A stretch of DNA of 64,000 nucleotides from Pseudotevenvirus miller (IMGVR_UViG_2706796139_000001:50895-114894), one strand, 5' to 3'; shown: positions 4,494 to 49,767, counted from the stretch's first letter. Program-made: numbers and translations. The notes: a model not told the origin generated them from the sequence alone.

Positions 4494-4946
4494 ATGGTTC
4501 TTATAATGGATATCGGATCAGGTAGTCAATACCCATCATGCGCATTGAGCAACTTTGCTCCGCATCCGTTTACATTTGACGGGGTAGAATGTGCATCGAT
4601 GGAGGGCTTTTTACAAAGTCTGAAATTTAGCAATCCAGATATGCAAGCACATGTGTGTACTCTGGTCGGTAAGGCTGCAAAGTTCAAAGGCAAAAAGAAA
4701 AAATGGTGGACAACCCAAACCCTGTATTGGAAGGGTATTCCGATCCATCGTGAATCAGAAGCCTATCAGATCCTTATCGAAAACGCGTACAATGCGTTGT
4801 TCCTGAATGAAGGGTTTCGCCGTGCGTTGAAAGCAACCGGAAAAAGTACCTTGACTCATTCAATGGGAAAGAATAAGATGAATGAAACGGTGCTCACTGA
4901 ACGTGAGTTTGTGCGAAATTTAACCCGACTAAGGGATCTGCTATGA
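4494..4946 (+). CDS. NADAR / YbiA-like (DUF1768) domain protein
   Basis: SNFAPHPF...DG...S.E..FQ..KF pattern typical of the NADAR fold, 150 aa. Confidence 0.7.
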   Translation: MVLIMDIGSGSQYPSCALSNFAPHPFTFDGVECASMEGFLQSLKFSNPDMQAHVCTLVGKAAKFKGKKKKWWTTQTLYWKGIPIHRESEAYQILIENAYNALFLNEGFRRALKATGKSTLTHSMGKNKMNETVLTEREFVRNLTRLRDLL

Positions 4947-5161
4947 TTGGTTATTCAGTAGTTCAGATGTCTAACGGGAAATGGCGACTGTTTTATTATT
5001 TTCGTTGGTTTCCGTGGTATAAATGGACTCCGACCTTTGGTGATGGTTGCGGGAACGATACGGGTATTCCGGTTGAATACAAACAAAAGATTGATGTTAT
5101 TGATTGGCATCTTAAGAACGAACAATTAAAAGAAAGGTTGAAATTATTACAATGCTTATGA
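4943..5161 (+). CDS. hypothetical protein (72 aa), Trp-rich
   Basis: ATGA-coupled ORF. Confidence 0.35.
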   Translation: MIGYSVVQMSNGKWRLFYYFRWFPWYKWTPTFGDGCGNDTGIPVEYKQKIDVIDWHLKNEQLKERLKLLQCL

Positions 5162-5364
5162 TTTATTTCGCAATCGTAGTTGGTGTCTTGATATACCTTG
5201 CTATTGGTGTATACTGTGCAGCACGGTTTTCCTGGTGTTTTGGTGTAAGTCATAACGGCTACCATACATTCTGGGGTACTGTGTTACAATATACCATTTT
5301 CCCGTTGATTGTGTTGTTTTGGCCTTTCTTCGCGTTGTGGTTCATCTTTGCATTATTTGTCTGA
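5152..5364 (+). CDS. small membrane protein (70 aa)
   Basis: Two predicted TM helices (IYFAIVVGVLIYLAIGVY...FPLIVLFWPFFALWFIFALF). Confidence 0.4.
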   Translation: MLMIYFAIVVGVLIYLAIGVYCAARFSWCFGVSHNGYHTFWGTVLQYTIFPLIVLFWPFFALWFIFALFV

Positions 5365-5370
5365 GGTTAT

Positions 5371-5638
5371 TATGAGTGAAAATGAAAGAGTAGAATGCGC
5401 GTTCCTGTTCAAAGGCGCGATCAACCCATTGGCATTACTCCACGCACAAGGTGCATTGAGTTCTACAATAATCATGAGTGTTATCTACAAAGCTGGTGTG
5501 TATTACGTTACGATCGGCGCAAACAATATGCGCGTGATGGAAAGCTACGTTGAAAAATGCGGACACAGAGGTATTGTATTTAACCGTATTGATATGGATA
5601 TTCCACCATACGACGCAATTTATATGTACAGGGGTTGA
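5371..5638 (+). CDS. hypothetical protein (89 aa)
   Basis: Starts MSENERVECAF. The listed 5309 ORF is an upstream extension. Confidence 0.4.
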
Positions 5639-5862
5639 TGATGGAATATTGGATTTATTTTGATTGCTCTGACCTCGATCCTGGGGTGTTGAGTCTTGCA
5701 GCAGCATATCACCAGACTATAACGGGGATCTCCGTGACTAACGATGATATGCTGTGTATTGAGTTTTCTGGGTATCGTCGATTTGAACGTGATATGTTCC
5801 TTGCATATTTGAACGCGCACAAATCAGATGTGTTCTACGATCGTTATGAGGTTAAATCTTGA
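5635..5862 (+). CDS. hypothetical protein (75 aa)
   Basis: ATGA-coupled ORF. Confidence 0.4.
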   Translation: MMMEYWIYFDCSDLDPGVLSLAAAYHQTITGISVTNDDMLCIEFSGYRRFERDMFLAYLNAHKSDVFYDRYEVKS

Positions 5863-6476
5863 AACCAGTTATTCTTACCGATATTGACGGGATCGCCGTA
5901 AAATGGCAAAGCGGCCTCCCGTTCTTTTTGTCTAAACACAATATGCCTACTGATATTGCTCTGGACATGGTCACCGATGAAAGATTTCGTGATATGACCG
6001 AAATATTCGGGTGTGATCACCAACTGGCTAAAATCCTGATGGAAGAATATAACAACAGTTCGTTTATTCGCTATCTAAGCGCGTATGACGATGCGTTAGT
6101 TGTGATCAACCGTCTGAAAGCCAAATATGATTTCGTCGCTGTCACGGCGCTGGGAACCACTCCTACGGCAAGTCTGAACCGTATTGCAAACCTGAACACA
6201 TTGTTCCCGTCTGCATTCAAAGAAGTGATGGTCGTCGGACATGGTGAAACAAAAACACATCGTTACCTGGAAGCAAAAGCCAAATACGGATCGCGGTTGG
6301 TTTGCTTTGTTGATGACCTTGCGGTAAACTTAAACGAGTGTCATAACGTTATCAGTCAGTTGCCGTTATTTCACATGTTGCGTGGTGAACGTGAACAACC
6401 AAATGTTCCGCACAGTATCGTAAAATCATGGTTTGAAATTGAAGAGAAATTAGATGATCTTATCAATATTGAATGA
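5859..6476 (+). CDS. HAD-superfamily phosphatase, 5'(3')-deoxyribonucleotidase-like
   Basis: N-terminal ILTDIDGI (DxDx[TV] motif I), a later conserved K and a (F)VDD motif. 205 aa. Confidence 0.6.
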   Translation: MKPVILTDIDGIAVKWQSGLPFFLSKHNMPTDIALDMVTDERFRDMTEIFGCDHQLAKILMEEYNNSSFIRYLSAYDDALVVINRLKAKYDFVAVTALGTTPTASLNRIANLNTLFPSAFKEVMVVGHGETKTHRYLEAKAKYGSRLVCFVDDLAVNLNECHNVISQLPLFHMLRGEREQPNVPHSIVKSWFEIEEKLDDLINIE

Positions 6477-7977
6477 ACTTGCATCGACTCTGAAAACCTC
6501 AGAGAAGGAAGCAATTTTAAAACGTAATGCAAACAACCTATTGTTGAAAGAGATTTTCCGAATTACGTACACAAAACAGATTATGTTCTATGTGCGTAAA
6601 TTTCCCCAAATCCTGTACAATGATATGAACCCTCGCGATCTTGCGTGGGCTGTTGATGCTCTGGGTGTATTGTCTCGACGTGAAAAGACGGGCAACGATG
6701 CGAAAGAATATCTTCGTCGGGTTGTATCATCAGTAAACGAGAACGATCGCGAAGTGTTGCGCCGTATCATTAACCGCGATCTTGAATGTGGTGCGGGTAC
6801 AACTCTGCCAAACCGCGTATGGAAGAAACTTATTCCAGAACAGCCTCAATGCCTCGCTACGCCGTTTAGTGAAAAAGCCTTAAAACGTATTCGCTTCCCT
6901 GCTTACTCTCAGCTTAAAGCCGATGGTGCGCGTTGTATGTCGGATCTGTTAGAAGACCAGATTCGCAAAGCAACCCGCGCGGGAAATGAGTATACAGGTT
7001 TGGTTGATCTGGATAAGGACTTGAAAAAGATCCGCGAATATCTGGGTTATGATGTTGTGCTGGATGGAGAATTGATTTATGTCCCTACTGAAAAAGCTGT
7101 TATCGAACCTGCAAGCGGGATTCCTTTTAGTCTTGCTGGGTTTATGGATGATGACGACGATGATATTTCTGGTCTTGTGGCAGATGTTCGACGGGAAACT
7201 ACCGAGAACGAAACACTGGAAGAAGCGAAACGCGAAGAGGGCAACGGGATTGTAAACAAATCCCTGAAAGGCACTATTAGCGACGAAGAACAGCGCAACA
7301 TTGTATATGTTGTCTGGGACATCATACCGTATGAAGTTTATTATGGCGATGCTCCGAGTGTTCAACCGTATTGCGATCGTTTGTCTATCCTGGATGGTGC
7401 TCTGGCTGGTTCTGGGGTATCGTGTGTTAAGTTAATCCCTTCTCGCGTTGTGTATAACATTGCAGAAGCAAAACTGGATTACAACAACTATCGAAATGAC
7501 GGTAAAGAGGGTTCTATCCTGAAAAATACCGATTTCGTCTGGAAGGATTCACGCGTTGCTGATCAGGTTAAGTTGAAGAACAAAACCCCGATTGAACTAC
7601 GGATCATCGACGTATACGCACATACCAAAGAACCCCATAAAGTCGGGGGTTTTGTGGTTGAAGACTTATCAGGTGAAGCCAGGACAAACACAGGTTCCGG
7701 TCTGACTGATACAGACTACCGCTATGATGAAGATGGTATTACGCGTGTGTATATCCCGTTAGAAGAACGCGGAGAACTGGATCGCGAGTACATCATGGCG
7801 AACAAAGATGACTATATCGGCGCTATCGTCGAAATGGAAGTTGACGGACTCCAGAAGTCTAAGACGCGTAAGAAAGGGGAACCTGAATACAGTTTCTTCT
7901 TGCCAATCATCAAAAAGATTCGACGCGATAAGACGGAACCTGATGATATTCATGTGGTTTTTGCTGATCTGTTTTAA
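6454..7977 (+). CDS. 30: ATP-dependent DNA ligase (T4 gp30)
   Basis: Strong similarity to the T4 ligase, with N-terminal MILSILNELAS and the KADGARC adenylation motif. 507 aa, with an acidic insertion (FMDDDDDDISG). Confidence 0.95.
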   Translation: MILSILNELASTLKTSEKEAILKRNANNLLLKEIFRITYTKQIMFYVRKFPQILYNDMNPRDLAWAVDALGVLSRREKTGNDAKEYLRRVVSSVNENDREVLRRIINRDLECGAGTTLPNRVWKKLIPEQPQCLATPFSEKALKRIRFPAYSQLKADGARCMSDLLEDQIRKATRAGNEYTGLVDLDKDLKKIREYLGYDVVLDGELIYVPTEKAVIEPASGIPFSLAGFMDDDDDDISGLVADVRRETTENETLEEAKREEGNGIVNKSLKGTISDEEQRNIVYVVWDIIPYEVYYGDAPSVQPYCDRLSILDGALAGSGVSCVKLIPSRVVYNIAEAKLDYNNYRNDGKEGSILKNTDFVWKDSRVADQVKLKNKTPIELRIIDVYAHTKEPHKVGGFVVEDLSGEARTNTGSGLTDTDYRYDEDGITRVYIPLEERGELDREYIMANKDDYIGAIVEMEVDGLQKSKTRKKGEPEYSFFLPIIKKIRRDKTEPDDIHVVFADLF

Positions 7978-7993
7978 ATAGCACTTTTTGTTT

Positions 7994-8071
7994 AAAAAGC
8001 CCCTTGCGTAAGTGAGGGGCTTTTGTTATTGTACACACATCGAAACGAAACAGACAAAAGGAACTACGAAA
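7994..8071 (+). promoter_or_regulatory. PeSL-like cassette: terminator hairpin carrying a -35 (TTGCGT), a -10 (TATTGT) and a conserved leader
   Basis: aaaaagccccTTGCGTaagtgaggggcttttgtTATTGTacacacatcgaaacgaaacagacaaaaggaac...ATG. Unit repeated 10 or more times in the window. Confidence 0.55.
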
Positions 8072-8326
8072 ATGGCTAGAACAATCAAAGATTTCCACGA
8101 TGACCAGATTATTTCTCATGTGATGAATGGTCGTATGATTCTGGTTCAGGATGGTGAAGATACCACTCTGATTGTCGAAAACGTAGTTCACTACAGCAAC
8201 AGCAGTTTAGAAGGCATGTTCAAATGGTTGTTGCGCCAGCACAAAGCAGAGAAAAGCAGTCTCCCAGCACAGTGCAAAGCCCACGCAAAAAACCTGGTTG
8301 TCGTTACTAAAATGAGAATGCGTTAA
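8072..8326 (+). CDS. hypothetical protein (84 aa)
   Basis: ATG 8072 downstream of the conserved leader. The listed 8012 ORF is an upstream extension through the promoter. Confidence 0.5.
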   Translation: MARTIKDFHDDQIISHVMNGRMILVQDGEDTTLIVENVVHYSNSSLEGMFKWLLRQHKAEKSSLPAQCKAHAKNLVVVTKMRMR

Positions 8327-8418
8327 AAATTGCCCCTTCGGGGGCAAATAATAGTTGCATTAAATCCTGGTTGTGATACATTACACACATCGAAACGAAA
8401 CAGAGAAAGGAACATACC
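8326..8418 (+). promoter_or_regulatory. PeSL-like cassette (hairpin, early promoter, conserved leader)
   Basis: ttgccccttcgggggcaa hairpin, then ...cattacacacatcgaaacgaaacagagaaaggaacataccATG. Confidence 0.5.
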
Positions 8419-8688
8419 ATGAACATCGATAAAGAACTCGAAGGAAAAGTAATCAACCTGGCAGACCGTGCGCGTTTTGAAAAGCTGGCTAATGGTGGTG
8501 AATCTCTGGGTGATGCAGTAGCATTATTCGAAAGACTTCGTGTTAAACGTGTTGTAGATGGCTGGGTTATTGCTCTCCCTGTCGCAGATGAAGACAAAGC
8601 GGTATATGACCCAGTTGCCGATTCATGGGATATCGCAATCTGTCTGGTTAACATTGAAGTAGAACTTTGCTTCGAGGAAGAAAAATAA
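8419..8688 (+). CDS. hypothetical protein (89 aa)
   Basis: ORF behind a PeSL leader. Confidence 0.5.
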   Translation: MNIDKELEGKVINLADRARFEKLANGGESLGDAVALFERLRVKRVVDGWVIALPVADEDKAVYDPVADSWDIAICLVNIEVELCFEEEK

Positions 8689-8692
8689 TTGA

Positions 8693-8759
8693 TTAAACCC
8701 CTTGCACATCGCGAGGGGTTTTGATACAGTACACACATCGAAACGAAAGGAGAAACATC
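8693..8759 (+). promoter_or_regulatory. PeSL-like cassette
   Basis: aaaccccTTGCACatcgcgaggggttttgatacagtacacacatcgaaacgaaaggagaaacatcATG. Confidence 0.5.
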
Positions 8760-9083
8760 ATGAAAGTTATGCACACTGCGAATCAACTTCAAAACGGCAA
8801 CTACGCGATCCACGATGCTATCGGTGCGCTGGTTGGGGTTTATCTTCCTGGTAGCAAATACCTCGAAGTTAGTGGGAATACCTTTACTGATGTTGAAAAC
8901 ATCGAAGCAGCAATGGAAATCATCGGTGAAGATCCGAATCTTCGTTGGTGTTGTGCGAAAACTGGTTTTGATGCTGCATGGGGTGCTACTCCAGAACAGG
9001 CGCGAGAAAACTGGGAACATCAGCAAATGTTCTTTGCGCATAAAACCCCATTCAATTATGACGGGAGTCACATAGCAGCATGA
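8760..9083 (+). CDS. hypothetical protein (about 107 aa)
   Basis: Starts MKVMHTANQLQNG behind a PeSL leader. Confidence 0.5.
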   Translation: MKVMHTANQLQNGNYAIHDAIGALVGVYLPGSKYLEVSGNTFTDVENIEAAMEIIGEDPNLRWCCAKTGFDAAWGATPEQARENWEHQQMFFAHKTPFNYDGSHIAA

Positions 9084-9388
9084 AAGAGCTAAATCTATCA
9101 AAAGAAGAAGTTGAAAAGCGGATTACCGAAGGACTTGAAGTTATCAAGTCTATCGACTGGGGAAAGGTGATTGATTCAATGCCTGATATCCCTGATACGA
9201 TTTGCCTTAATTGTGGGCGATCCGTAATGGTTGGAAAGTGCTGTGATAATCAGAATATCGTTATCATGGACAGGAAAGAAGTTTCACCGGAAGTGTGGGA
9301 TCAGATTCAAGAAATCATCAAAAACCCACCGGAACCGACGAAACGTTTACGCGAACTTATGAGCAGGACACCACGTTATGAAAAATGA
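9080..9388 (+). CDS. hypothetical protein (102 aa) with CxxC...CC motif
   Basis: ATGA-coupled ORF containing ICLNCGRSVMVGKCCDN. Confidence 0.5.
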   Translation: MKELNLSKEEVEKRITEGLEVIKSIDWGKVIDSMPDIPDTICLNCGRSVMVGKCCDNQNIVIMDRKEVSPEVWDQIQEIIKNPPEPTKRLRELMSRTPRYEK

Positions 9389-20344: not shown

Positions 20345-22564
20345 TTACAGTTTAACTTCTTTTTCTTCCAGGACGATTTCGCAATCGAATGTTGCACCTT
20401 CCCAGAACTTATGCGGGATAATGTCAGTCGCTTTAACCGATACTTTGGTTTCTTCGAAATCCATATCCGCAAACCATGCGTGGCCTACAACGATACCGTA
20501 CATTACACGGCTCAGGCGCTTGTTCAGTGCGCGTACTTCGTTGATGGTTGCCTTTGTTTCTTTATCAAGGTACTCGATTACCTTATCCTTGTCAAGCGCT
20601 GCGAGTTCAGCTTTAACAGCATCGTAAGCCCACAGGATGATCAGGTCGCCGTTGTTCAGTTTCTTCTTACCTTCGGCACGTTTCGCAACGGTTGCCGCTA
20701 CAGCAGGAAGGGAGGAAACACCCTTGATTTTCAGATTCAGTTCTTTCGACATATAAACATCAGTCGAATCGGTACGGGTTACTTTCGGGGAGAATCCATA
20801 ATCACGAATACCCTGTTCAGATAACCATTCACCAGCGGCTTCACCGTATTTCTGTTTCAGACCTTCGGCATTACGTAAACCGATCGCATCGTCACGGAAG
20901 AACTTCATCACCTTCTGGCGACCTTTCAGGATTTCCAGACGGATAGAGTCGTTTACATACTCTTTACCGGAGATCCCGCGAGTCATCGCACGGTTAACCA
21001 GAGGCAGACTTGTAAAGTCAACCAGAACCGACATACGGTCTTCACCGATTTTTGCCAGCGGCTTGATGGTCAAACCAGAAGCGCGGAGGTTTTTCAGTGT
21101 CGGAATATCAGTTTCCAGAGGCAGAACCTTAACGTTTACGATACCGTCTTTAACGATGGTAAAGTTACGCACCTGCTTAGTTTCGATCTGTTCAGGCAGT
21201 CCGAATTCTTTCTGCTTACTTTCTGGGATAGTTACGTAACCAGCCAGATCCGTGTTAATGGAAATGTTCGGACGTGAACTGTTACCGACCAGATGCTTAA
21301 CCGATACTTTGGTTGTAGTCTGGGTAAATTTCGGTGTCCAGATTTCGTGCGTTACCATTTGCGCGGCTAATGCTTTGCGTTCTTCCGGTGTTTTCGCATT
21401 TGCGATCTGTTCTGACAGTTGATCCAGAGTATCATCTTCTTTCTGTACTGTCTGACGGCCTGTACGGTTGTACGCCCAGTGTTCAGAAGACAGGTCGATC
21501 ACTGTGTCAGTTTCTGCCAACAGTTCGAGAGCATCAACCAGAGTGAATGCGTTTTCGTCTGGAACCATGTTGTAATCAACACCCTCAATCAGACGTTTAC
21601 CCGCATCAACTACCGCTTCCGCGATCAGGTCTTTGGCGTTGGAATAATCCTGCTTAGTAAAGCAGTTATCGTATGCCTTAATCAGACGAACGTCACCGAC
21701 TTTTTTCAGCACTTTCCATGCCAGATCAGGGTTCATGGTGTGCAGTGCATGATACAGCACCACGTACAGAACCTGTTCACCTTCCATCGTAGCCGGATCG
21801 AATCCGTCGATGTCGTTGATTGCGTTTTCACCCAGCGCCCAGATGTTTTTGATATGCTCAGGAACCAGCACAACACCGTTTGCAGCGTTAAGGACATACA
21901 CGCGCCCTTCGTCAATGTAGATCGCATGGGTAGCATCACCTACTTTAACTTCAACACGCGCTGATGTTTGAGCGGTAATGATTTCAGCAAATGCTGGCTC
22001 GTATGCGTCGAAACCTTCAACGAATTTATGCAATGCGTTGGTTGCTTCTGCCATTTTTTCCAGCAGAGGACGGTTAACATAGTAACCATATTCCAGGAAC
22101 GCAATGCTGTTAAACGTCAGCGGGAGAACCGCACACGCTTTCAGGATGTCATCGGTACGCCAGCAGTTATCATAACCATCCGTCAGGAAGATCAGGCTGT
22201 TCAGGTTTCCGTTTTCGGATTGCAGGTCAGTTGCAATCTCAGCAGCCAGATTCAGAGGTTCGACGAAACCAGTACAACCAGTAGGTTTCAGATAACGGTC
22301 GATCGCGGTGCAGATATTGGTCAGATCCGATACGTTGCTAACCTTCTCACCACGGAACACAGTACCGTAATCGCCTTTGCTGGAGAAGTACAGGATCGAA
22401 ACAGTATCATCCTGTTTAACCAGGCTTGCCAGATTCGCTTTCAGGTGCTTACGAATTTTCGGCAATTCACTGTACATTGAACCGGAAACGTCGCAAACGA
22501 AAACGTGGTTGGTCGGAGTCGGTTTAGATACTGCATTTTTGAATTCGATATTTGTAATTGACAT
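20345..22564 (-). CDS. von Willebrand factor A (vWA) domain protein, 739 aa
   Basis: N-terminal MIDAS motif VFVCDVSGSMYS ... LFLTDGYDN. The long C-terminal region has no recognisable domain. Not Alt-like or RIIA-like. Confidence 0.8.
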   Translation of the reverse strand: MSITNIEFKNAVSKPTPTNHVFVCDVSGSMYSELPKIRKHLKANLASLVKQDDTVSILYFSSKGDYGTVFRGEKVSNVSDLTNICTAIDRYLKPTGCTGFVEPLNLAAEIATDLQSENGNLNSLIFLTDGYDNCWRTDDILKACAVLPLTFNSIAFLEYGYYVNRPLLEKMAEATNALHKFVEGFDAYEPAFAEIITAQTSARVEVKVGDATHAIYIDEGRVYVLNAANGVVLVPEHIKNIWALGENAINDIDGFDPATMEGEQVLYVVLYHALHTMNPDLAWKVLKKVGDVRLIKAYDNCFTKQDYSNAKDLIAEAVVDAGKRLIEGVDYNMVPDENAFTLVDALELLAETDTVIDLSSEHWAYNRTGRQTVQKEDDTLDQLSEQIANAKTPEERKALAAQMVTHEIWTPKFTQTTTKVSVKHLVGNSSRPNISINTDLAGYVTIPESKQKEFGLPEQIETKQVRNFTIVKDGIVNVKVLPLETDIPTLKNLRASGLTIKPLAKIGEDRMSVLVDFTSLPLVNRAMTRGISGKEYVNDSIRLEILKGRQKVMKFFRDDAIGLRNAEGLKQKYGEAAGEWLSEQGIRDYGFSPKVTRTDSTDVYMSKELNLKIKGVSSLPAVAATVAKRAEGKKKLNNGDLIILWAYDAVKAELAALDKDKVIEYLDKETKATINEVRALNKRLSRVMYGIVVGHAWFADMDFEETKVSVKATDIIPHKFWEGATFDCEIVLEEKEVKL

Positions 22565-27201: not shown

Positions 27202-27437
27202 TCCGTTTCAATACCGTGTTTGTATGCGTCAATACCCAGAGGGGTGATCAGAAGACACATATCAGTATTTTCTGTTGGTGATTTAAACGCCGTCATTGCG
27301 TACCCTTTTTCAATCAGGGCATTACGCCCTGCTTTACTGGGTACATCATTGAAGTCCAGATCCAGCACTTTTGATGCGTAGCTGTACAATTTGTAAAGCA
27401 CATCAATTTCAGCACCGGACAATTTAGGAAAACTCAT
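27192..27437 (-). CDS. hypothetical protein (81 aa)
   Basis: ORF. Confidence 0.4.
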   Translation of the reverse strand: MSFPKLSGAEIDVLYKLYSYASKVLDLDFNDVPSKAGRNALIEKGYAMTAFKSPTENTDMCLLITPLGIDAYKHGIETEWH

Positions 27438-28444
27438 TTGTAGTACCCCACAACATGATCACGATATACACGTTCAATAAAGTCGTCCCAGAACTCGCGA
27501 TCAACCTCTTTCGGATAGGTTGATACTGCTGCAAGTCGTTCGACTTCGCCCATAACTTCTTCCAGTTTTTCCTGAACAAAACTGAACGGTTTCGTTCCGG
27601 CTTTGACTTCTTTTAAAAGCTGGCTCTCTTCCAGAGGATATACGATATCACCATGTTTGTAAATGCTGATAAGCTGTAAGCCCCCGCGCAATGCGTGAGA
27701 AAGCGCTTTCCAGTCGATACCGTTGTTGGCTTCTGCCTGTCTTGCTCTTTCACCGTATTCATCCCAGAGTTTATACACGGATTTTTTCATTTCCGCAACT
27801 GTGATTGTCGATTGGAACTTACGCCCCAACACTTCGTAGAAGTCCTGACAACCCGCTTTCTGTGTTGTGTCGGTAACGAATCGACAGAACTCGTTGGTCG
27901 GGAACTTGTCTGACACTTCGCCAACTTTAACGCGGAATTCAGTTAATTGCGCCGCACGTCCAGAAGGATGACTAACCCACTCTTTACGAGTATCTTCAAG
28001 CCCCTGCAACACATCATAGATTTCACGCAGTGCAGCCAGGCGAGAACCTTTAACGCCATACTTCGCGGCTTGCTTACGAACATAACCGAACAGACCAGTT
28101 AATTCTGTAGTGTAGAAACGCCAACGGTTAGCGCGGATATACTGCCAGATTTCGGAGTTAGCGATCAGCTTACTATCTTCAGCATGAAGCATATCGAGCG
28201 CTACGGTATCACCATCACACGCAAGGCTAATGAACTTAGGCAGACTATACAACTGACGGTCAATGTCGTCTACGGTGTTTTTAGAGCTTTTATCGCCCGT
28301 GCTCGTGTCGATAGTCTTAGGGGCTTTACCCAGCAGAATATCGCGTGGATGCGGGAGAAAGATCCCTTTATAGTCTTTGTCGCTTGTCGGTGTGTTCAGT
28401 CCATACAGGTGAGAACCGAACACAGTTTCCATTACAATTTTCAT
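27434..28444 (-). CDS. pol-beta superfamily nucleotidyltransferase (YcgL/RlaP-like predicted NTase)
   Basis: ETVFGSHLYGLNTPTSDKDYKGIF matches the minimal NTase signature GS-x10-DxD. A third acidic cluster DGDTVALD follows, then a helical C-terminal domain. 336 aa. Confidence 0.65.
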   Translation of the reverse strand: MKIVMETVFGSHLYGLNTPTSDKDYKGIFLPHPRDILLGKAPKTIDTSTGDKSSKNTVDDIDRQLYSLPKFISLACDGDTVALDMLHAEDSKLIANSEIWQYIRANRWRFYTTELTGLFGYVRKQAAKYGVKGSRLAALREIYDVLQGLEDTRKEWVSHPSGRAAQLTEFRVKVGEVSDKFPTNEFCRFVTDTTQKAGCQDFYEVLGRKFQSTITVAEMKKSVYKLWDEYGERARQAEANNGIDWKALSHALRGGLQLISIYKHGDIVYPLEESQLLKEVKAGTKPFSFVQEKLEEVMGEVERLAAVSTYPKEVDREFWDDFIERVYRDHVVGYYK

Positions 28445-28869
28445 TCTTCACTCTCCGATGTATCAATACCTAACATCTTTGCAATATCTTTCAGTTGAAA
28501 AGTCGCGATTTCGGGAACACGAACACTATGAGAACCGAACTCTTTTCGAATTTTCTCAGACAGCATAACACGATATTGAATTTCATCATATACTGTTTTG
28601 CTGCGATACATGTAGAATCCACCCCATCCACCGCCAGTACCAGAAGTTAACCCGCACTTACGATCGACTTTCTCAACGTTCCAATCTTTTAAATCAGCAT
28701 TCTTATTCGGGGATGCGTACAAGTATTGACGAGCAACCTTGATTACATGGAACACGCGAGGATTCGCAGTTTTTCGATTGTTGTATTGACTTACGCCAGG
28801 ATCGTACAGGGTATCACCCACTTTCACATCAGACAAATCTCTTAAATCAGTCATTTCATTTTCCAACAC
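28441..28869 (-). CDS. hypothetical protein (142 aa)
   Basis: ORF immediately upstream of the NTase gene. Confidence 0.45.
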   Translation of the reverse strand: MLENEMTDLRDLSDVKVGDTLYDPGVSQYNNRKTANPRVFHVIKVARQYLYASPNKNADLKDWNVEKVDRKCGLTSGTGGGWGGFYMYRSKTVYDEIQYRVMLSEKIRKEFGSHSVRVPEIATFQLKDIAKMLGIDTSESEE

Positions 28870-30131: not shown

Positions 30132-30200
30132 AATTACCTCCTTCGTTTCGATGTCCCTAATATAGCAAAAGCCCTCACGCGAACGCAAGGGCTTTTTAAT
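30120..30200 (-). promoter_or_regulatory. PeSL-like cassette (minus strand)
   Basis: Reverse complement: aaaaagcccTTGCGTtcgcgtgagggcttttgcTATATTagggacatcgaaacgaaggaggtaattATG. Confidence 0.55.
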
Positions 30201-30299: not shown

Positions 30300-31358
30300 T
30301 TAAATTCCCGTAAACGCTACGATAATCTGATAGTGGTCATCGAAGAACTCACCACGTTTCTGTTTGACTTCGTGCATTGGCATCCAGAAAGCCTCTGCTG
30401 CATCGTCAGCGCCTCCCATGATGCGGGGCAGACTTCCATCATTGTTAGGTTCTAACTTGATGTACTGCGCCACAGTCGGTTTTGAGAAGTGTACAGAACG
30501 CTTCGGATGGTCGAACAACATCGAATTGCGGATTGAACCACGAATAACCTTTTCAGGAACCTTGATCCGAACCTCTTCGAGCAATTCACGGATCGCACAA
30601 TCCAGGAATGATTCATTTGCGTTTTTGTGTCCACCTGGCAGGGCCAACGCGCCTTTACCTGGTGCAAACTTACGACGAATTACCAGAAGGTGATTGTTAC
30701 ACACAACCACGCTATCACCCGTACAGCAGTTTAACGCGTCTGGGTATGGGTAGTTTTTGAACTTCTCCAGTTCGTCTTCCCATTTTTCGAACTCGTAATA
30801 CAAACGCCAGAATGTATCGGTCATCATCCATGAATCAATATAATTCACCGTAGATTGCGGTGCGTATTGTGCGATTTTTTCATCCCATCCGTTTTTATGC
30901 AAAAAGATGGTCGGACGCAGATCGGTAGCAGACAAATCTTTACCATCAACTTTAACCGGATCTACAGGAACATGAGTCCATCCGAACGCTTTAAGCCAGT
31001 ACGAATCAGCATCCTTTTCGTAACCATAGATCGCGATGTTATCGCCTTTGGTTTCGTCGATTGCTGTACGAACAGAGGTTTTCCATTTTTCTTCATTGTA
31101 AAGGTAATCTGGAATAGGTTTGAATTGCACACGGGATACATCTTCGTATTTGAACTCAGACAGTAACCAGCTAGTGATCATGCGTTCCCGTTCGGTTGCC
31201 GTCAGCGGGTTTAAAACGTTAGGGTAAGCGTAAGCTGAACCCAGAAGGATGTAAACGGTCTTCGACTCTTCAAGTGCTTTACGCACCATCGCTGCATGAC
31301 CATTATGGAAGGGTTGGAATCTGCCAATTACGACAGCTTTATCAAATTTGAATTTCAT
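30300..31358 (-). CDS. natV: bifunctional NMN adenylyltransferase / Nudix ADP-ribose pyrophosphatase (NatV/NadM-like)
   Basis: N-terminal GRFQPFHNGH is the (H/T)xGH nucleotidyltransferase motif. The C-terminal Nudix box is GGHKNANESFLDCAIRELLEEV. Likely start at MKFKFDKAVV. Confidence 0.85.
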   Translation of the reverse strand: MKFKFDKAVVIGRFQPFHNGHAAMVRKALEESKTVYILLGSAYAYPNVLNPLTATERERMITSWLLSEFKYEDVSRVQFKPIPDYLYNEEKWKTSVRTAIDETKGDNIAIYGYEKDADSYWLKAFGWTHVPVDPVKVDGKDLSATDLRPTIFLHKNGWDEKIAQYAPQSTVNYIDSWMMTDTFWRLYYEFEKWEDELEKFKNYPYPDALNCCTGDSVVVCNNHLLVIRRKFAPGKGALALPGGHKNANESFLDCAIRELLEEVRIKVPEKVIRGSIRNSMLFDHPKRSVHFSKPTVAQYIKLEPNNDGSLPRIMGGADDAAEAFWMPMHEVKQKRGEFFDDHYQIIVAFTGI

Positions 31359-31482: not shown

Positions 31483-31535
31483 TATAGTATTCTCGTTTTA
31501 AGAATCAAGCCCCCAGGAGAGGGGGCTTTAAACCC

Positions 31536-34315: not shown

Positions 34316-34520
34316 GTTTAGAACGTTCCTCTGCAATAGCATCTTCTACCGCGTCTTCAACTTCCTTTTCAACGAACGCGATAATGTCATCAACCATGTT
34401 ATTGATATATGTCATGTTCAGGTTGCGTGAATCTGGATCGTCTTCTGCTGCATAGTCCTGGTAAAGTTCTCCCAGTTCTTTCAGCTTATGTTTTAACACT
34501 TTTTCTTCTTGATGTCTCAT
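34308..34520 (-). CDS. hypothetical acidic protein (70 aa)
   Basis: ORF. Confidence 0.4.
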   Translation of the reverse strand: MRHQEEKVLKHKLKELGELYQDYAAEDDPDSRNLNMTYINNMVDDIIAFVEKEVEDAVEDAIAEERSKHG

Positions 34521-35005
34521 AATTCCACCTTGCGCATATCAACCGAAGGATCGAAGTGTACCACGATGATCGGATAGTCACCTGTACATTCATCAATGAT
34601 GCGTTTAATGTGTTCCCAATCTCCCCCAGCAAGTCCCGCGCCGATAAGAGGGGTAACTATAGGAAATTGTTTAGGACACGCCCTAGCGCTTTCCACTGCA
34701 CTTTCAAAGCAAGTTTTAATCGCATCGTAATCAACTTGCGGACCAGCACCCCAGAATTTAAACTGGGTATAGGCATTGAATACCATACGACCATCCTCTT
34801 GAACATAAACAGAGTTACGGCCCAACTTGTTCTGATTGCCTTTCATCGTCATTGCATCAGCTTTGAACGCATTAGGAATTTTATGTTTTACTTCTTTTGC
34901 GATACCCGCACCCATGTTACAGAAGCAGTTGCACCCGTGGATCAGGTGTACGTCACGACGAAGGAACAATTCAACCGCGTTCCCTTTAATCTCTTTGATA
35001 ATCAT
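34517..35005 (-). CDS. macro domain protein (ADP-ribose binding/processing, YmdB-like)
   Basis: HGCNCFCNMGAGIAKE ... TPLIGAGLAGGDWE motifs, 162 aa. Confidence 0.8.
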   Translation of the reverse strand: MIIKEIKGNAVELFLRRDVHLIHGCNCFCNMGAGIAKEVKHKIPNAFKADAMTMKGNQNKLGRNSVYVQEDGRMVFNAYTQFKFWGAGPQVDYDAIKTCFESAVESARACPKQFPIVTPLIGAGLAGGDWEHIKRIIDECTGDYPIIVVHFDPSVDMRKVEL

Positions 35006-40695: not shown

Positions 40696-40700
40696 GGGAA

Positions 40701-41300: not shown

Positions 41301-41301
41301 G

Positions 41302-43852: not shown

Positions 43853-43862
43853 GATATAGTTC

Positions 43863-44326: not shown

Positions 44327-44391
44327 AACAATCTCCGGTTTCGTTTCTATGGGTGTAAGATAACATCATCCCACACCCAGCGCAAGCGATT

Positions 44392-44592: not shown

Positions 44593-44731
44593 AGTTCATT
44601 TCCATAATCTTTCGCTGCATCTTCGGGGGTTGCGTCCAGTCGATAAAGCTCAACGGCTAACGGACTGGGTTTGATTTCGCGGTTCAGGATCTCACTGATA
44701 CCGCGAAGGAATTCGATATAAGGACGGAATC

Positions 44732-44983: not shown

Positions 44984-45054
44984 GATATCCTCCTTCGTTT
45001 CGATGTGTGTACAATAACAGATCAGGGTTATCGAGTTTTAGCAATTCGTGCTAA
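44984..45054 (-). promoter_or_regulatory. PeSL-type promoter/leader (no obvious hairpin)
   Basis: Reverse complement: ...tgttATTGTAcacacatcgaaacgaaggaggatatcATG. Confidence 0.4.
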
Positions 45055-45333
45055 TTATGACATTTTCTTAGCGATTTTCCAGGCGGCTTTGAACGCCGGA
45101 ACATCTTCAATATCAACCCAGAAACCAGAACCGAAACCATCATTGTAGCAAGGGCAACCGTCGCAGTAGTTTTCCCAGGTCATCACTTTACCACCAACAG
45201 AAGCACCAGTTTCCATCGCACGTAATGCATCTTCAACCTTTTCCAGTTTTTCTGCGTTGTCGTCATAAATGATGAAGTACCATTTGCCGTTGTATTCGTT
45301 ACCAAGTTTGATTGCTTCGCGAACAAGTTTCAT
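45055..45333 (-). CDS. hypothetical protein (about 92 aa)
   Basis: Starts MKLVREAIKLGNEY behind a PeSL leader. The listed 119 aa ORF reads through the promoter cassette. Confidence 0.45.
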   Translation of the reverse strand: MKLVREAIKLGNEYNGKWYFIIYDDNAEKLEKVEDALRAMETGASVGGKVMTWENYCDGCPCYNDGFGSGFWVDIEDVPAFKAAWKIAKKMS

Positions 45334-45424
45334 GATGATTTCCTTTCTCTGTTTCGTTTCGATGTGTGTAATATAACAAAAGCCCTCACCATAGGCAAGG
45401 GGTTTCTTTAACAAAAAGTGCTAT
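45334..45424 (-). promoter_or_regulatory. PeSL-like cassette (minus strand)
   Basis: Reverse complement: aaagaaaccccTTGCCTatggtgagggcttttgTTATATTacacacatcgaaacgaaacagagaaaggaaatcatcATG. Confidence 0.55.
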
Positions 45425-46027
45425 TTAATAGTATCCAGGATCTTTGAAGTGTGCTTTCACATATCGCAGAATTTCATGCAACATCTGCGTTTGCTCATGC
45501 CCTCGTTGTGAAGCCATATCGATCATGACGCGAGTCATTTCGACGTTCTCCAGGCTGGCTATACGATGTTTTAAGGCTTCGTTTTCCTTTTCCAACTCAA
45601 CCATACGGTCATATGCTTTGATGCGCTCCAGAGGCATATCAGGGCGCTGTTTGAGGACACGGGCGCGTGACACTTCGCATTCGTGATTTGCTTTCCAGTG
45701 ATCACGTTCACCAGCAATTTTATCGTTCTCCTGGTGTAGACGTACAATCTCTTTAAGGAGGCGTTCAGTGGTATCGGGATCAAACGAAACCATGTATTGC
45801 ATCAGGGATTGCAGCCACAGATCCTCTTGTACCGCCTGTAACGCTTTAGGCCCAATAATGGTAAACGCGCGTTTCTTCATGTTGCTACCGCAACCGTAGT
45901 TAACGTTACCCGTAATCGAACCTGGTTGATTCGTACCATCCCATTTGTCACCGATAACAGGTTTTACTTGCTGAATAGCACGATTCAGCATTTCGAATTC
46001 TTCATCTAAAATCATTTCATATCCCAT
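45425..46027 (-). CDS. hypothetical protein (200 aa), coiled-coil C-terminus
   Basis: ORF. Confidence 0.45.
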   Translation of the reverse strand: MGYEMILDEEFEMLNRAIQQVKPVIGDKWDGTNQPGSITGNVNYGCGSNMKKRAFTIIGPKALQAVQEDLWLQSLMQYMVSFDPDTTERLLKEIVRLHQENDKIAGERDHWKANHECEVSRARVLKQRPDMPLERIKAYDRMVELEKENEALKHRIASLENVEMTRVMIDMASQRGHEQTQMLHEILRYVKAHFKDPGYY

Positions 46028-46416
46028 AATTCATATTGTGAGCGAAGGATAGCGTAAAGACTACCGATATGGATTGTATCTACCGGACACTGGAACAGAT
46101 CCCCGCGCATCATGTTAAACTCGATATCGTTACGTTCAACATAGTTACCGATCATCGATGTCCATCCCATCACCAGGTTGTAACCATCTTCCGATAACCC
46201 ATAAGCCAGCTTAACAAGAATGCAACGCTTATCAGCCAGTTCTACGCGCATATGGGTACTGGTATGAGTGACCTTGTTCGGGAATCTGCGAAACATTTTA
46301 GTAAGGAGTTTGGCGGTTTCAATATTGAACGCCAGTTCTTGATCCTTACTGGTCTGGTTATCATGACGACGATCCAGATATTTCTTCATTTTCGGATTCA
46401 GATTCACATGTTGCAT
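46012..46416 (-). CDS. hypothetical protein (134 aa)
   Basis: ORF. Confidence 0.45.
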   Translation of the reverse strand: MQHVNLNPKMKKYLDRRHDNQTSKDQELAFNIETAKLLTKMFRRFPNKVTHTSTHMRVELADKRCILVKLAYGLSEDGYNLVMGWTSMIGNYVERNDIEFNMMRGDLFQCPVDTIHIGSLYAILRSQYELWDMK

Positions 46417-46598
46417 AATATATCCCTCACAGGTTTATAACGTTCTTTTCCAGTGCCGTTGCATGAACTGCATTTTGGCGATCCGTGGTTATCATATCGC
46501 CCAGACCCATTACATGCAACACATTTCCGTAATTTCCAGCCATACACGAACCGCATGTAATAATCGGTTCGTGCTGCCTTGCGTTCGTGGAAGTTCAT
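46404..46598 (-). CDS. zinc-ribbon protein (64 aa)
   Basis: CVACNGSG...CSSCNGTG. Confidence 0.4.
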   Translation of the reverse strand: MNFHERKAARTDYYMRFVYGWKLRKCVACNGSGRYDNHGSPKCSSCNGTGKERYKPVRDILCNM

Positions 46599-46819
46599 CA
46601 GTTTGCTTCTTTGTAAACAGCAACCATCCAGTAACCCATAGATTCAGTGTAGTACACGTCAACCCGTGGCATGTTACGATAAACGTAAGCGGCTTTGTAC
46701 GCTTCCAGTTCAGTTTTCACACCGAAAGAGAACCCAGTGAGATAGCTGGAATATTCCAGGACTTCACAACCAACAACTTTAGACAGACGTTTAGAAGCAA
46801 CCGCGCTTGAAATACCCAT
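46598..46819 (-). CDS. hypothetical protein (73 aa)
   Basis: ORF behind a PeSL leader. Confidence 0.4.
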   Translation of the reverse strand: MGISSAVASKRLSKVVGCEVLEYSSYLTGFSFGVKTELEAYKAAYVYRNMPRVDVYYTESMGYWMVAVYKEAN

Positions 46820-46899
46820 TTTTGAATCCCCTTTCTGTGTTTCGTTTCGATGTGTGTAATATACAAAAAAGCCCCCTGCATTGCAAGAGGCTTTTTGAA
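46820..46899 (-). promoter_or_regulatory. PeSL-like cassette (minus strand)
   Basis: Reverse complement: aaaaagcctctTGCAATgcagggggcttttttgTATATTacacacatcgaaacgaaacacagaaagggg...ATG. Confidence 0.55.
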
Positions 46900-47859
46900 T
46901 TATTTTGGTAATTTTTTGATTAATGCTTGTAAGTCGTTGATTTTAGAAAACAGTTCATCGCTATATCGCATCAATTCCTGTCTGCGTTTTGCAGCCCATG
47001 AAACCAATGTTTTTGCATCATCAACACCATAAGTGTATCCATCAGCGGATAGACGAATGATCGCACGAGAACCGTAGTCAACATTTGCATGTTCGATTAA
47101 AAACTTCACCGCTTCGAGAAGTTCGGAATCTTCCTTACTGACTAGAACACCGTTATCATCAGGAAATTCGTTTTCATCATGAACACTCGCAAAATCAAGG
47201 TCGATATAATCATCCTGATTCACCTGGCGGCGCGTGTTGTCTTCGAGACTTTCAATCTGTGAAACCATAGTTTCTACCGGATCTCTTTCAATTGGTTCTC
47301 TGTCGGTTCCTACTTCTTCCAGGAACATCAACAACCAACCAGGGATCAACGAATCAAAAGAACGCTGAATAGGGCTTGCATGGTCACTACCCAGTATTTT
47401 CAACGCACAACCGTCTTTAGTAGCGGTGTGGATATAAATGACGTTACGGTCACGCATACGGCGGCTACCATGAGAAAGGAAGCGACGTAACGAGGTGTTA
47501 TGTCCATAGCGACTCAGATCCAGATTACACAGAGAATCGATAGCCCCACGGTTAGCAATCCGGTAGCGCTTGAATGTTTCAAATCGCAGATTTTCGGTAG
47601 TTACTGGCTTAAATTCTTCGTAAAGAATATAATATTCTTTCGGAATCTCGCGATGGAGAACTCGCAATTCACCATTTTCCGAAGGAGTGAGCACAGAACG
47701 AACATTACCGTTCGCATCACAATGTACCTGCATGACTTGAGGATAATAGAACCCATTAGCCTTTATGGTGTAGTCGGGTACGCGACTCAGGCGCTTTCTG
47801 TAGTACCATTTACCAGTAACAAACGGGGTTGCAGATCCTGCTAAACTAATTGGTTTCAT
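46900..47859 (-). CDS. hypothetical protein (319 aa) downstream of the DUF262 gene
   Basis: ORF overlapping the DUF262 gene by 4 nt (operon). No confident domain. Contains HCDANGN. Confidence 0.5.
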   Translation of the reverse strand: MKPISLAGSATPFVTGKWYYRKRLSRVPDYTIKANGFYYPQVMQVHCDANGNVRSVLTPSENGELRVLHREIPKEYYILYEEFKPVTTENLRFETFKRYRIANRGAIDSLCNLDLSRYGHNTSLRRFLSHGSRRMRDRNVIYIHTATKDGCALKILGSDHASPIQRSFDSLIPGWLLMFLEEVGTDREPIERDPVETMVSQIESLEDNTRRQVNQDDYIDLDFASVHDENEFPDDNGVLVSKEDSELLEAVKFLIEHANVDYGSRAIIRLSADGYTYGVDDAKTLVSWAAKRRQELMRYSDELFSKINDLQALIKKLPK

Positions 47860-48386
47860 TTTGTGGCCTTATACATTTCAATTACGCGTTTCATGTGCTC
47901 TTGTGATTGAGGCACACCAGCGAAGTTCAATTTAATGAAGAATTCAAGACGATCCTTTTTATTACATTCATCCAGCCCCAGGGCAGGTAATGACAGGTTT
48001 TCAAAGGCTCGTTGTTCATGTCGTTGCATATCATCCCAGAACAGACGGGAACCATCCGGCATAGGAATCCCAATCTCACCCTCATAGACTTTGATGATAG
48101 TCGTCAGGCGTTGTTTCCCGTCGATTACTTCTACCCAATGGGATTCGTTGAATTCACTATCAACAGCAATCGCGATAATACCACACGGGAAACCAGTGAT
48201 CAACGTAGTCAGGAATTCATCTTGTTCTTTCTGCGTCCACACATAGGGGCGCTGATAGGATGGATTCAGATCCAGATCTTTGTTTTTCCACCAGTGGATA
48301 TAACTTCCAACCATGATCGCATGTTCGCGACTTCTGAAAGTTATCCGTTCACGAATCCGGTTACGGACTACGATTTCATCAGCCAT
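47856..48386 (-). CDS. DUF262 (ParB/Srx-like, GmrS N-domain-like) protein
   Basis: YQRPYVW and DGKQRLTT (the DGQQR motif). 176 aa. Confidence 0.7.
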   Translation of the reverse strand: MADEIVVRNRIRERITFRSREHAIMVGSYIHWWKNKDLDLNPSYQRPYVWTQKEQDEFLTTLITGFPCGIIAIAVDSEFNESHWVEVIDGKQRLTTIIKVYEGEIGIPMPDGSRLFWDDMQRHEQRAFENLSLPALGLDECNKKDRLEFFIKLNFAGVPQSQEHMKRVIEMYKATK

Positions 48387-48708
48387 GATAAACCACCATC
48401 CAGATCAAACCAGTTACAACAACCGCAACAGTGAAACACATAGCAGCATACACACGCGCATTATGAACCTGCGTTTTCATTTCTGCGATCTCTTGATCCT
48501 TTTCGCTTTCGAATTCGTCGCGGGTTCCGTAGTAGCCAGGATCAGCAGGGGTAGCGATACGCACCGCATCTTTTTCTACAATAGTCGCATAACCATTGTT
48601 TACATTTGTTGCGCCGTACCAATCACCACGATCGTTGTTAATGATCAGGTGTTGCCCCTTTTCATTGTGCTTTGATTCACCAATGACAACTACACGTTTA
48701 CCATTCAT
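48379..48708 (-). CDS. C-terminally membrane-anchored protein (109 aa)
   Basis: C-terminal TM helix AAMCFTVAVVVTGLIWMVVY. Confidence 0.4.
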   Translation of the reverse strand: MNGKRVVVIGESKHNEKGQHLIINNDRGDWYGATNVNNGYATIVEKDAVRIATPADPGYYGTRDEFESEKDQEIAEMKTQVHNARVYAAMCFTVAVVVTGLIWMVVYHG

Positions 48709-48711
48709 AAT

Positions 48712-48969
48712 TTAATCCTTCACATGTTGTAACAGGAATTCTAACAGCTTTCCTTCGGCTTGCATAGCATAAACTTTATTAAGTTTTGCGATGTTTTGAA
48801 AATCAGAGGTTTCTGGATATTCCCAAGCACCATCATCAGAAACAACTGCACCTACTGATATACCAGAAGGATCGCGGGTTAACGCCAGCCCCAGCGGGTG
48901 CAATATTTCTTTGTTGATTTTCCAGATCAGCCCCATATCGGACAGAGTATTGAAATCAACGATTTTCAT
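48712..48969 (-). CDS. hypothetical protein (about 85 aa)
   Basis: Starts MKIVDFNTLSD. Confidence 0.4.
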   Translation of the reverse strand: MKIVDFNTLSDMGLIWKINKEILHPLGLALTRDPSGISVGAVVSDDGAWEYPETSDFQNIAKLNKVYAMQAEGKLLEFLLQHVKD

Positions 48970-48970
48970 G

Positions 48971-49357
48971 TTATGCCTTTGGGACAACACCGAATGCCAG
49001 AAGACCCATACGATGATCGTTATCTGCACCGTCACGGAAGAAGTAGTATTGATTGTCGGAAATATCGGTTACGGTGATACCCTCTTTCAGATACGGCAAC
49101 AGATATAACGGGATCAGCATCAAATCAGATTCACTGCTCCACTTACGGAAACCCAGATTTTTCATTTCTTCCAGTGTCAACTCGTTAGGATCGACGGGAG
49201 AAAAATCAGGTGACCCGATCAGGCGATTAGGAAGGTCGCGAATATGCTTGATTGCGAATTCAGAATCCCACGAACTGTAAGCGATAGGTTCAGCGGCACG
49301 GGTTGCTGTAGCCAGCATAATCATTTGACAGATTTGAAAAGTTGTTGATTTGCTCAT
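48971..49357 (-). CDS. hypothetical protein (128 aa)
   Basis: ORF. Confidence 0.4.
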   Translation of the reverse strand: MSKSTTFQICQMIMLATATRAAEPIAYSSWDSEFAIKHIRDLPNRLIGSPDFSPVDPNELTLEEMKNLGFRKWSSESDLMLIPLYLLPYLKEGITVTDISDNQYYFFRDGADNDHRMGLLAFGVVPKA

Positions 49358-49767
49358 GATGTATATCCCACAATTTTAGTCAGAAGGTGTCCCATAGTTT
49401 TACGCGCATGATCGCGGATTTCGCTATAAGGAACATATTTGAAACCATCCATTTCTGTAATGGTTCGACCATTCTTAACGAAGGTTGACGCACAGAAACA
49501 TTTTTCGGCTTCGGGGTAAGTATCGCCTTTATAGACAAACAATGCAAGTTTTTTCTTGCTTGTATAGTCCAAAACACCCAGGCTGATCAGTTGGTCTGGG
49601 AACACTTCAAAACCAGTTTCTTCGAAGCATTCACGAATAGCAGCATCAATATGGGCTTCGCCTTTTTCAACATGCCCCTTTGGGATATCCCAGTGGGGCG
49701 TTTCGGTAGCGTGACCCATTAGAATGCTGCCGTTATTCAGAAAGAGAATACCAGCAGACAATTCCAT
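49354..49767 (-). CDS. nudE: Nudix hydrolase (NudE-like)
   Basis: Nudix box GHVEKGEAHIDAAIRECFEETG. About 137 aa from MELSAGILF. Confidence 0.75.
   Translation of the reverse strand: MELSAGILFLNNGSILMGHATETPHWDIPKGHVEKGEAHIDAAIRECFEETGFEVFPDQLISLGVLDYTSKKKLALFVYKGDTYPEAEKCFCASTFVKNGRTITEMDGFKYVPYSEIRDHARKTMGHLLTKIVGYTS

Follow-up and report, generated by a model that had tools for sequence, protein, structure and literature searches.

A stretch of 64,000 nucleotides, referred to below as the window, encodes a scattered set of proteins that bear on nicotinamide adenine dinucleotide (NAD), ADP-ribose and cyclic-nucleotide signals: a NADAR-fold protein, a stand-alone macrodomain, the bifunctional enzyme NatV, a stand-alone Nudix hydrolase, and homologs of the phage T4 proteins Acb1 and Acb2. 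Over a 7-kb part, the window shows 100% identity to Citrobacter phage vB_CfrM_CfP1 (KX245890.1 / NC_031057.1; hereafter CfP1), an already published RB43-like T4-type phage of the Straboviridae (Pseudotevenvirus miller) with a genome of 180,219 bp. Positions given here are those of the window, and the addition of 50,894 converts them to positions in the CfP1 record. The genes are arranged as on the classic T4 map: gene 31, the 30.x genes with the ligase and the baseplate genes come first, next is a long run of early accessory genes on the minus strand (rI, tk, vs, 57B, 57A, 1, 3, 2, 4), and genes 53 and 5 follow.

An earlier reading of this DNA, made from the sequence alone, had proposed that five of these genes, namely those for the NADAR, macro, NatV, Nudix and 2H phosphoesterase proteins, form a toolkit directed at NAD+ and ADP-ribose. 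All five open reading frames (ORFs) are present, each coincides with an annotated coding sequence of CfP1, and all the domain calls hold. Profile hidden Markov models (HMMs) supported the Macro, NatV, Nudix and 2H assignments, whereas the NADAR models stayed below threshold and the fold was recognized instead by structure prediction. The gene for the Acb2 homolog, annotated as a hypothetical protein, had been overlooked. Folds were tested by building AlphaFold2 models and comparing them with structures in the PDB, and the distribution of each protein was determined as the number of matches among 50,697 phage records, counted protein by protein.

An ortholog of the T4 anti-DarTG1 factor AdfN

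The ORF at 4494-4946 on the plus strand matches the Pfam family Phage_30_3, typified by T4 gp30.3, with an E-value of 2.7e-56, and a scan against NCBIfam returned only TIGR02464 at a sub-threshold 0.0034. Solved NADAR structures were matched neither by the single sequence nor by a profile of 27 homologs. Because no NADAR HMM reached its threshold and no solved NADAR was matched by sequence, the structure was predicted from the homolog alignment. The resulting model (pLDDT, the predicted local distance difference test score, of 89), which includes a helix at residues 132-145, recovered the three solved NADARs as its top three matches in the PDB: YbiA of Escherichia coli (E = 1.4e-4, TM-score 0.61), the DarT-associated NADAR of Geobacter lovleyi and that of Phytophthora nicotianae. 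All structural matches below these three are noise. The NADAR assignment of the sequence-only reading is thus borne out by structure prediction, sequence HMMs alone being insufficient. The proposed start of the gene requires correction: there are two in-frame ATG codons, and the start at 4494 appears to lie four codons too early. The probable gene (4506..4946, plus strand) begins at the annotated start. This start coincides in part with the stop codon of the ORF before it and gives a protein length of 146 residues, as in most homologs, which begin with MDIGSG.

The CfP1 protein aligns with T4 gp30.3 over its full length at 42% identity (E = 1e-35), and its gene occupies the same position as in T4, upstream of 30.2 and the ligase. 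The residues E33, K40 and H118 are invariant in the 27 homologs and align with the catalytic E36 and K43 of the T4 protein and with a His specific to AdfN; the alignment further extends to the final residue of gp30.3, leaving the C-terminal helix intact. These features are of direct relevance to function, as gp30.3 of T4 is AdfN (anti-DarT factor NADAR), a DNA ADP-ribosylglycohydrolase (Johannesman et al., bioRxiv 10.1101/2024.07.11.602962, Nat Commun 2025) that T-even phages require to overcome DarTG1 and that is sufficient for this, and inactive versions of AdfN include E36A, K43A and a C-terminally truncated allele of phage RB69 (10.1101/2024.07.11.602962). Among phage NADARs, removal of guanine-linked ADP-ribose, or rescue from DarTG1, has been shown for some, T4 AdfN included. 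In addition, T4 30.3 is dispensable on E. coli K-12, with insertions in it being lost only on DarTG1 hosts (10.1101/2025.11.20.689424). By orthology, the CfP1 protein is a predicted DNA (guanine) ADP-ribosylglycohydrolase and anti-DarTG1 factor, which most likely removes the ADP-ribose placed by DarT1 on guanine in phage DNA.

One difference concerns the DNA on which the enzyme would act. T4 AdfN is apparently adapted to DNA containing hydroxymethyl-cytosine (hmC), and is reported to perform best in that context (10.1101/2024.07.11.602962). Across the CfP1 genome we found no homologs of the T4 beta-glucosyltransferase, of a dedicated dCMP hydroxymethylase, or of the T4 proteins AdfA (61.2) and Dmd; the phage does encode a homolog of the gp56 dCTPase and several DNA methyltransferases. 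As homologs of the T4 modification genes are absent, CfP1 probably does not use glucosyl-hmC DNA, and its AdfN ortholog, unlike T4 AdfN, must act on DNA devoid of hmC.

A stand-alone macrodomain of the Tk.4 type

The gene at 34517..35005 on the minus strand encodes a stand-alone macrodomain of 162 residues. It scores 31.2 bits against Pfam Macro (cutoff 22) and its model (pLDDT 94) has the macro fold, with TM-scores of ~0.7 to the macrodomains of TARG1, Poa1p and DarG (the latter from Thermus aquaticus), in agreement with the assignment made earlier. The protein shares 36% identity with T4 Tk.4 (E = 1e-29), and resembles it in size, in macro subclass and in the location of its gene between tk and vs. 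Profile searches matched BT1257 (5.5e-17), SCO6735 (7e-15) and DarG of Mycobacterium tuberculosis (3e-11); the protein belongs to the TARG1/DarG/Poa1p class, within which it is about equally close to Poa1p, an ADP-ribose 1''-phosphate phosphatase, and to DarG. Residues N26, G122-A123-G124, G128 and W130 are invariant in the family, so that both the ADP-ribose-binding Asn (N26, equivalent to N22 of DarG) and the Gly-rich loop are present.

In other respects the protein departs from DarG. In the profile alignment the catalytic Lys of DarG (K80 in T. aquaticus) is not found, its place being taken by an invariant Gln (Q81), as it also is in T4 Tk.4. A C-terminal DarT-binding domain is lacking, the sequence profile lies nearer to BT1257 and SCO6735, and the match to the NCBIfam DarG equivalog model reached only 34 bits where 250 are required, covering no more than positions 15-151 of its 338. 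As judged from these sequence features, the Tk.4-type protein may function like DarG yet falls outside the DarG family.

The T4 ortholog, named AdfM, was alone in reaching significance in a transposon screen of T4 on DarTG2 hosts (the HIDEN-SEQ preprint, 10.1101/2025.11.20.689424), and a clean knockout of tk.4 was sensitised to DarTG2 (10.1101/2025.11.20.689424). By analogy, the CfP1 protein is a probable anti-DarTG2 factor that likely shares its class of substrate, thymine-linked ADP-ribose on DNA, with DarG and the AdfM of PhiKZ-type phages, and it most likely removes the ADP-ribose placed by DarT2 on thymine. For the PhiKZ-type AdfM there is biochemical proof of DNA de-ADP-ribosylation, and that protein keeps the catalytic Lys (PMC13309987). 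Since an invariant Gln replaces the catalytic Lys of DarG and TARG1, the Tk.4-type proteins, if active on DNA, would employ a chemistry distinct from that of DarG. That the family either strips thymine-linked ADP-ribose by such a different chemistry or counters DarTG2 by way of another substrate is a conjecture that we entertain only tentatively.

NatV and its distant partner NadV

The product of the gene at 30300..31358 (minus strand) is NatV, a bifunctional enzyme of the NadM type in which a nicotinamide mononucleotide (NMN) adenylyltransferase is joined to a Nudix hydrolase. Pfam CTP_transf_like and NUDIX domains are both present, and the NCBIfam models for NadM-type bifunctional NMN adenylyltransferase/Nudix proteins are matched at 5.5e-78, in accordance with the original claim. 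An HNGH motif at residue 18 is of the H/TxGH type, and the Nudix core reads RELLEE. Annotated terminators flank the gene at 30171-30192 and 31509-31526.

The sequence-only reading had further held that the genes of the window could rebuild NAD+. NatV is indeed part of a validated pathway for this, but it is insufficient on its own to make NAD+ from nicotinamide, and its obligate partner NadV (nicotinamide phosphoribosyltransferase, Nampt) is encoded outside the window. We found the gene for NadV at 152140-153573 of the CfP1 record, with matches to NAMPT_N (6.9e-24) and NAPRTase (2.5e-39); it lies ~38 kb past the window end and ~70 kb from natV, and is hence not in an operon with it. Its neighbours encode a DNA methyltransferase and a thioredoxin. 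NAD salvage in phage KVP40 was reportedly described by Lee, Li and Miller in 2017.

Together, NadV and NatV constitute the NAD+ reconstitution pathway NARP2, and the pair from KVP40 abolishes defence by type I Thoeris and DSR2 and raises NAD+ levels (Osterman et al., bioRxiv 10.1101/2024.02.11.579819). CfP1 encodes the same two enzymes with the same domain architectures, at identities of ~41% (NatV) and ~49% (NadV) to the versions of KVP40-like Vibrio phages. The CfP1 genes are ~70 kb apart, whereas those of KVP40 were tested as an operon, and the RB43-like versions are known from their sequence. In the pathway as proposed, NadV would convert nicotinamide and phosphoribosyl pyrophosphate to NMN, from which the adenylyltransferase domain of NatV would form NAD+ with ATP, thereby refilling the NAD+ pool drained by NADases of the Thoeris, DSR or SIR2 type; the Nudix domain of NatV would probably split ADP-ribose or trim NAD+ levels. 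A PRPS-like partner (Adps) would mark the alternative pathway NARP1; no such product appears in the RefSeq annotation of CfP1, where the neighbours of nadV are too small to encode one, although no dedicated whole-genome profile search was made for it. NARP3, comprised of PnuC and NadR, is a pathway of its own, absent from the CfP1 annotation.

Orthologs of the anti-CBASS proteins Acb1 and Acb2

The gene described earlier as a 2H phosphoesterase (51864..52487, minus strand) encodes an ortholog of T4 57B. The sequence-only reading named this gene, although the span it delimited, ending at 49767, leaves the gene out. T4 57B is Acb1, a nuclease that counters the cyclic oligonucleotide-based antiphage signalling system (CBASS) and one of the genes recovered in the T4 transposon screens (10.1101/2025.11.20.689424). 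The CfP1 protein matches Pfam Acb1 at 3.3e-49 (166.8 bits, cutoff 27) and the Acb1 structure 7t26 at 8e-26, and shares 42% identity with 57B (E = 3e-35). It retains both HxT/S motifs of the 2H family (H49-T-T and H118-V-T), and its gene is syntenic with 57A, gene 1 and gene 3. The protein is therefore a 2H enzyme as claimed, but one that by orthology is predicted to degrade the cyclic-nucleotide signals of CBASS, and Acb1 has no known role in the metabolism of NAD or ADP-ribose into which it had been drawn.

The CfP1 version differs from T4 57B by a C-terminal extension of ~50 residues (residues 158-207; 51864-52020, minus strand), which has no match in Pfam. Of 1,487 phage records with a match, only 210 align over 80% or more of CfP1 Acb1, and in Klebsiella phage KP6 the match is restricted to the extension (residues 161-206). 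On the evidence of these matches the extension is clade-restricted. A segment resembling Acb1 was also observed in the portal protein of cyanophage Pam3 (PDB: 8hds; residues 486-592, E = 9e-5 to CfP1 Acb1), which fits reports of such enzymes fused to virion proteins.

At 2707..2988 on the plus strand lies a homolog of T4 vs.4, which encodes Acb2, detected by a tblastn search with T4 Vs.4 (55% identity, E = 2.4e-24) and matching the Pfam family Acb2_Tad1_hairpin at 1.2e-18 (67.5 bits, cutoff 27). It is directly preceded by a vs.6/GrcA homolog (2345-2707) that is annotated as 'pyruvate formate lyase'. By orthology, the protein would serve as a cyclic-nucleotide sponge, such that CBASS signals would be cleaved by Acb1 and sequestered by Acb2.

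A stand-alone Nudix hydrolase of the NudE.1 type

The stand-alone Nudix hydrolase (49354..49767, minus strand) had also been correctly recognized: it matches Pfam NUDIX at 3.9e-13 and contains an intact Nudix box, GHVEKGEAHIDAAIRECFEETG, with the core RECFEETG. Its identity to T4 NudE is 41% (E = 4e-27), and E49/E50 correspond to the catalytic E64/E65 of the T4 protein. The genomic context differs, in that the T4 gene adjoins the endolysin gene and the CfP1 gene does not, the VanY-type endolysin of CfP1 being encoded elsewhere. In vitro, T4 NudE.1 acts on NAD, NAD-capped RNA, ADP-ribose, FAD and Ap3A (Xu et al. 2002; Wolfram-Schauerte et al., 10.1101/2024.04.04.588121), and its catalytic mutant shows a lysis delay only (10.1101/2024.04.04.588121). 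The suggestion that this gene helps to rebuild NAD+ thus runs counter to the behaviour of its T4 ortholog, which breaks NAD down. We regard the CfP1 protein as a probable broad-specificity Nudix enzyme within the accessory set, to which no defence task is assigned.

Layout and phyletic distribution

The genes discussed above span 47 kb of the window and lie on both strands, and nadV is located ~50 kb further beyond the Acb1 gene. Many annotated terminators and unrelated genes separate them. The accessory genes are thus independent, dispersed transcription units rather than one system.

Their distribution among phages is likewise heterogeneous. Matches were found in 2,755 records for the Tk.4-type macro protein, 2,019 for the NadV/Namat family, 1,508 for AdfN, 1,487 for Acb1, 1,269 for NudE and 439 for NatV. 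With 1,269 to 2,755 records each, AdfN, the macro protein, NudE and Acb1 are standard equipment across the T4 superfamily. Records with NatV are limited to RB43-like, KP15-like, Aeromonas and Vibrio T4-like phages and some jumbo phages, with just 10 from Escherichia phages. As a rough estimate, the full set of T4-type genes together with NARP2 occurs in ~200 sequenced genomes, all from related clades, which agrees with the 210 records of the long form of Acb1. The addition of NARP2 is therefore a trait of whole clades and not of a single phage. A 2022 paper had already reported that Macro, NADAR and Nudix domains co-occur statistically in large phages, and had proposed a role in counter-defence. 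Hence, the combination that the sequence-only reading singled out as noteworthy is typical of its clade and built largely from widespread T4-type genes.

Functional interpretation and its alternatives

The identity of the phage, the domain and fold assignments, the orthologies, the retention of catalytic residues and the finding of a nadV gene in the genome converge on the interpretation that this RB43-like phage carries several accessory genes, dispersed and independent of one another, and each orthologous to a characterised enzyme by which a phage disarms one class of immunity. We place the probability of this interpretation at roughly 0.78. The T4 orthologs concerned (30.3, tk.4, nudE, 57B and vs.4) are matched over their full length at 36-55% identity, with synteny kept for 30.3, Tk.4 and 57B; the enzymatic activities of the CfP1 proteins, and the escape from defences that they would confer, are inferred from these orthologs. 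The proposed reversal of DarT-type ADP-ribosylation is accordingly supported through AdfN (against DarTG1) and AdfM (against DarTG2), with activity in CfP1 expected by analogy with T4. Likewise, a 'multi-pronged' counter-defence is apt insofar as the orthologs counter separate classes of immunity, though there is no single system and NudE.1 has no known role in defence. The removal of ADP-ribose-derived signals, which had also been envisaged, is not supported for any gene of the window.

Several observations weigh against this interpretation. The identities to characterised orthologs are only 36-42%, and those of NatV and NadV to KVP40-like phages are 41-49%. Without dCMP hydroxymethylase and glucosyltransferase, CfP1 presents its AdfN ortholog with a substrate context unlike that of T4. 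The Tk.4-type family has its invariant Q81, in a 'YTQ' motif, opposite the catalytic Lys of the DarG 'PTK' motif, and DNA de-ADP-ribosylation by T4 Tk.4 itself was inferred genetically rather than biochemically (10.1101/2025.11.20.689424). NARP2 raises NAD+ in hosts without any defence system as well (10.1101/2024.02.11.579819), and NudE.1, which has no known role in counter-defence, degrades NAD in vitro (10.1101/2024.04.04.588121).

Some of these points bear on an alternative in which the genes serve housekeeping or metabolism. NadV and NatV would then boost NAD+ for replication, NudE.1 would decap NAD-RNA or clean nucleotide pools, and the macro protein would be a Poa1p-like ADP-ribose-1''-phosphate phosphatase that clears the by-products of tRNA and RNA repair by Pnk and the RNA ligases. 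CfP1 does encode Pnk and RNA ligases, the macro protein is about as near to Poa1p as to DarG, and the annotation of T4 Tk.4 mentions an A1pp phosphatase motif. Furthermore, since NARP2 over-produces NAD+ without a defence system (10.1101/2024.02.11.579819), a purely metabolic benefit from it is possible, and the decapping of NAD-RNA by NudE.1 in vitro, together with a mutant that merely delays lysis (10.1101/2024.04.04.588121), is in keeping with a metabolic role. However, the genetics of T4 is specific to defence: tk.4 was the sole significant hit on DarTG2 and its knockout was sensitised, and 30.3 was needed only on DarTG1 hosts and dispensable on K-12 (10.1101/2025.11.20.689424). NARP2, moreover, abolishes the defence conferred by Thoeris and DSR2 (10.1101/2024.02.11.579819). 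The metabolic and defensive roles are also compatible with each other. We therefore consider housekeeping an improbable explanation of the set as a whole, though metabolism or RNA repair may apply to NudE.1, and in part to NARP2 and the macro protein.

A second alternative is that the hydrolases regulate or reverse the action of the phage's own ADP-ribosyltransferases of the Alt, ModA and ModB type, in a circuit for host takeover. In several T4-like phages the NADAR genes are early and expressed alongside such transferases, according to the 2022 paper, and in T4 the alt gene is found near gene 30 and the 30.x group. Yet tblastn searches of the whole 180-kb CfP1 genome (E <= 1e-3) recovered no homolog of T4 Alt, ModA or ModB, even though the hydrolases are retained. 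Because these transferases are missing, the hydrolases are unlikely to service enzymes of the phage's own, and we give this possibility very little credence. Least probable of all is a single coordinated and co-regulated NAD/ADP-ribose toolkit with mutually dependent parts, for although Macro, NADAR and Nudix co-occur above chance in DNA-virus genomes (the 2022 paper) and NatV and NadV are functionally coupled, the genes are scattered over both strands with terminators and unrelated genes between them, their phyletic spread is very unequal (NatV in 439 records vs 2,755 for the macro protein), and each T4 ortholog acts singly on a different defence system (10.1101/2025.11.20.689424).

Other genes of the window

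A Pfam scan of 95 more ORFs of the window (20 larger hypothetical and 75 small ones) uncovered no further domain related to NAD or ADP-ribose; its sole relevant addition was Acb2. The families matched in these ORFs were RlaP, VWA, SPFH, GmrSD_N, ProQ_C-like, SLT, PhoH, radical SAM/SPASM, PIN and several domains of unknown function (DUFs). A protein of 176 residues (47856-48386, minus strand) contains a GmrSD_N (DUF262) domain only (E = 3.1e-20), the half that lies N-terminally in a type IV restriction enzyme; the nuclease half is missing, and the protein may act as a decoy or inhibitor, or be a relic. A hypothetical protein of 739 residues (20345-22564, minus strand) has an N-terminal von Willebrand factor A domain, with no Pfam match in the remainder. 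An RlaP-family nucleotidyltransferase (27434-28432, minus strand) is the ortholog of T4 nrdC.11 at 51% identity, and is followed by a phage protein resembling the C-terminal part of ProQ (28441-28854). Among the small ORFs, one matches PIN domain families (best 2.6e-15) and another a TacA1-like antitoxin family (8.7e-4). Downstream of the homolog of gene 31 (co-chaperonin), a single annotated tRNA-Met gene (597-670, plus strand) is flanked by hypothetical ORFs of small size.

Implications for RB43-like phages

No new mechanism is revealed by these genes; the general idea has been published and the combination is typical of the clade. Certain mechanistic loose ends do emerge, namely the active site of the Tk.4 type with Gln in place of Lys, the operation of AdfN on DNA without hmC, and the C-terminal extension of Acb1. 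The main value of the analysis lies in annotation: where the deposited CfP1 record has labels such as "hypothetical protein", "RNA ligase", "cytidyltransferase" and "ADP-ribose pyrophosphatase", the names AdfN, AdfM, Acb1, Acb2, NatV and NudE.1 become possible. By analogy with the characterised orthologs, RB43-like phages would unite anti-DarTG1, anti-DarTG2, anti-CBASS and NAD+-reconstitution functions in a single genome, and this may be of use in predicting host range and in choosing therapeutic phages against strains of Citrobacter, Klebsiella and Enterobacter that possess those defences.

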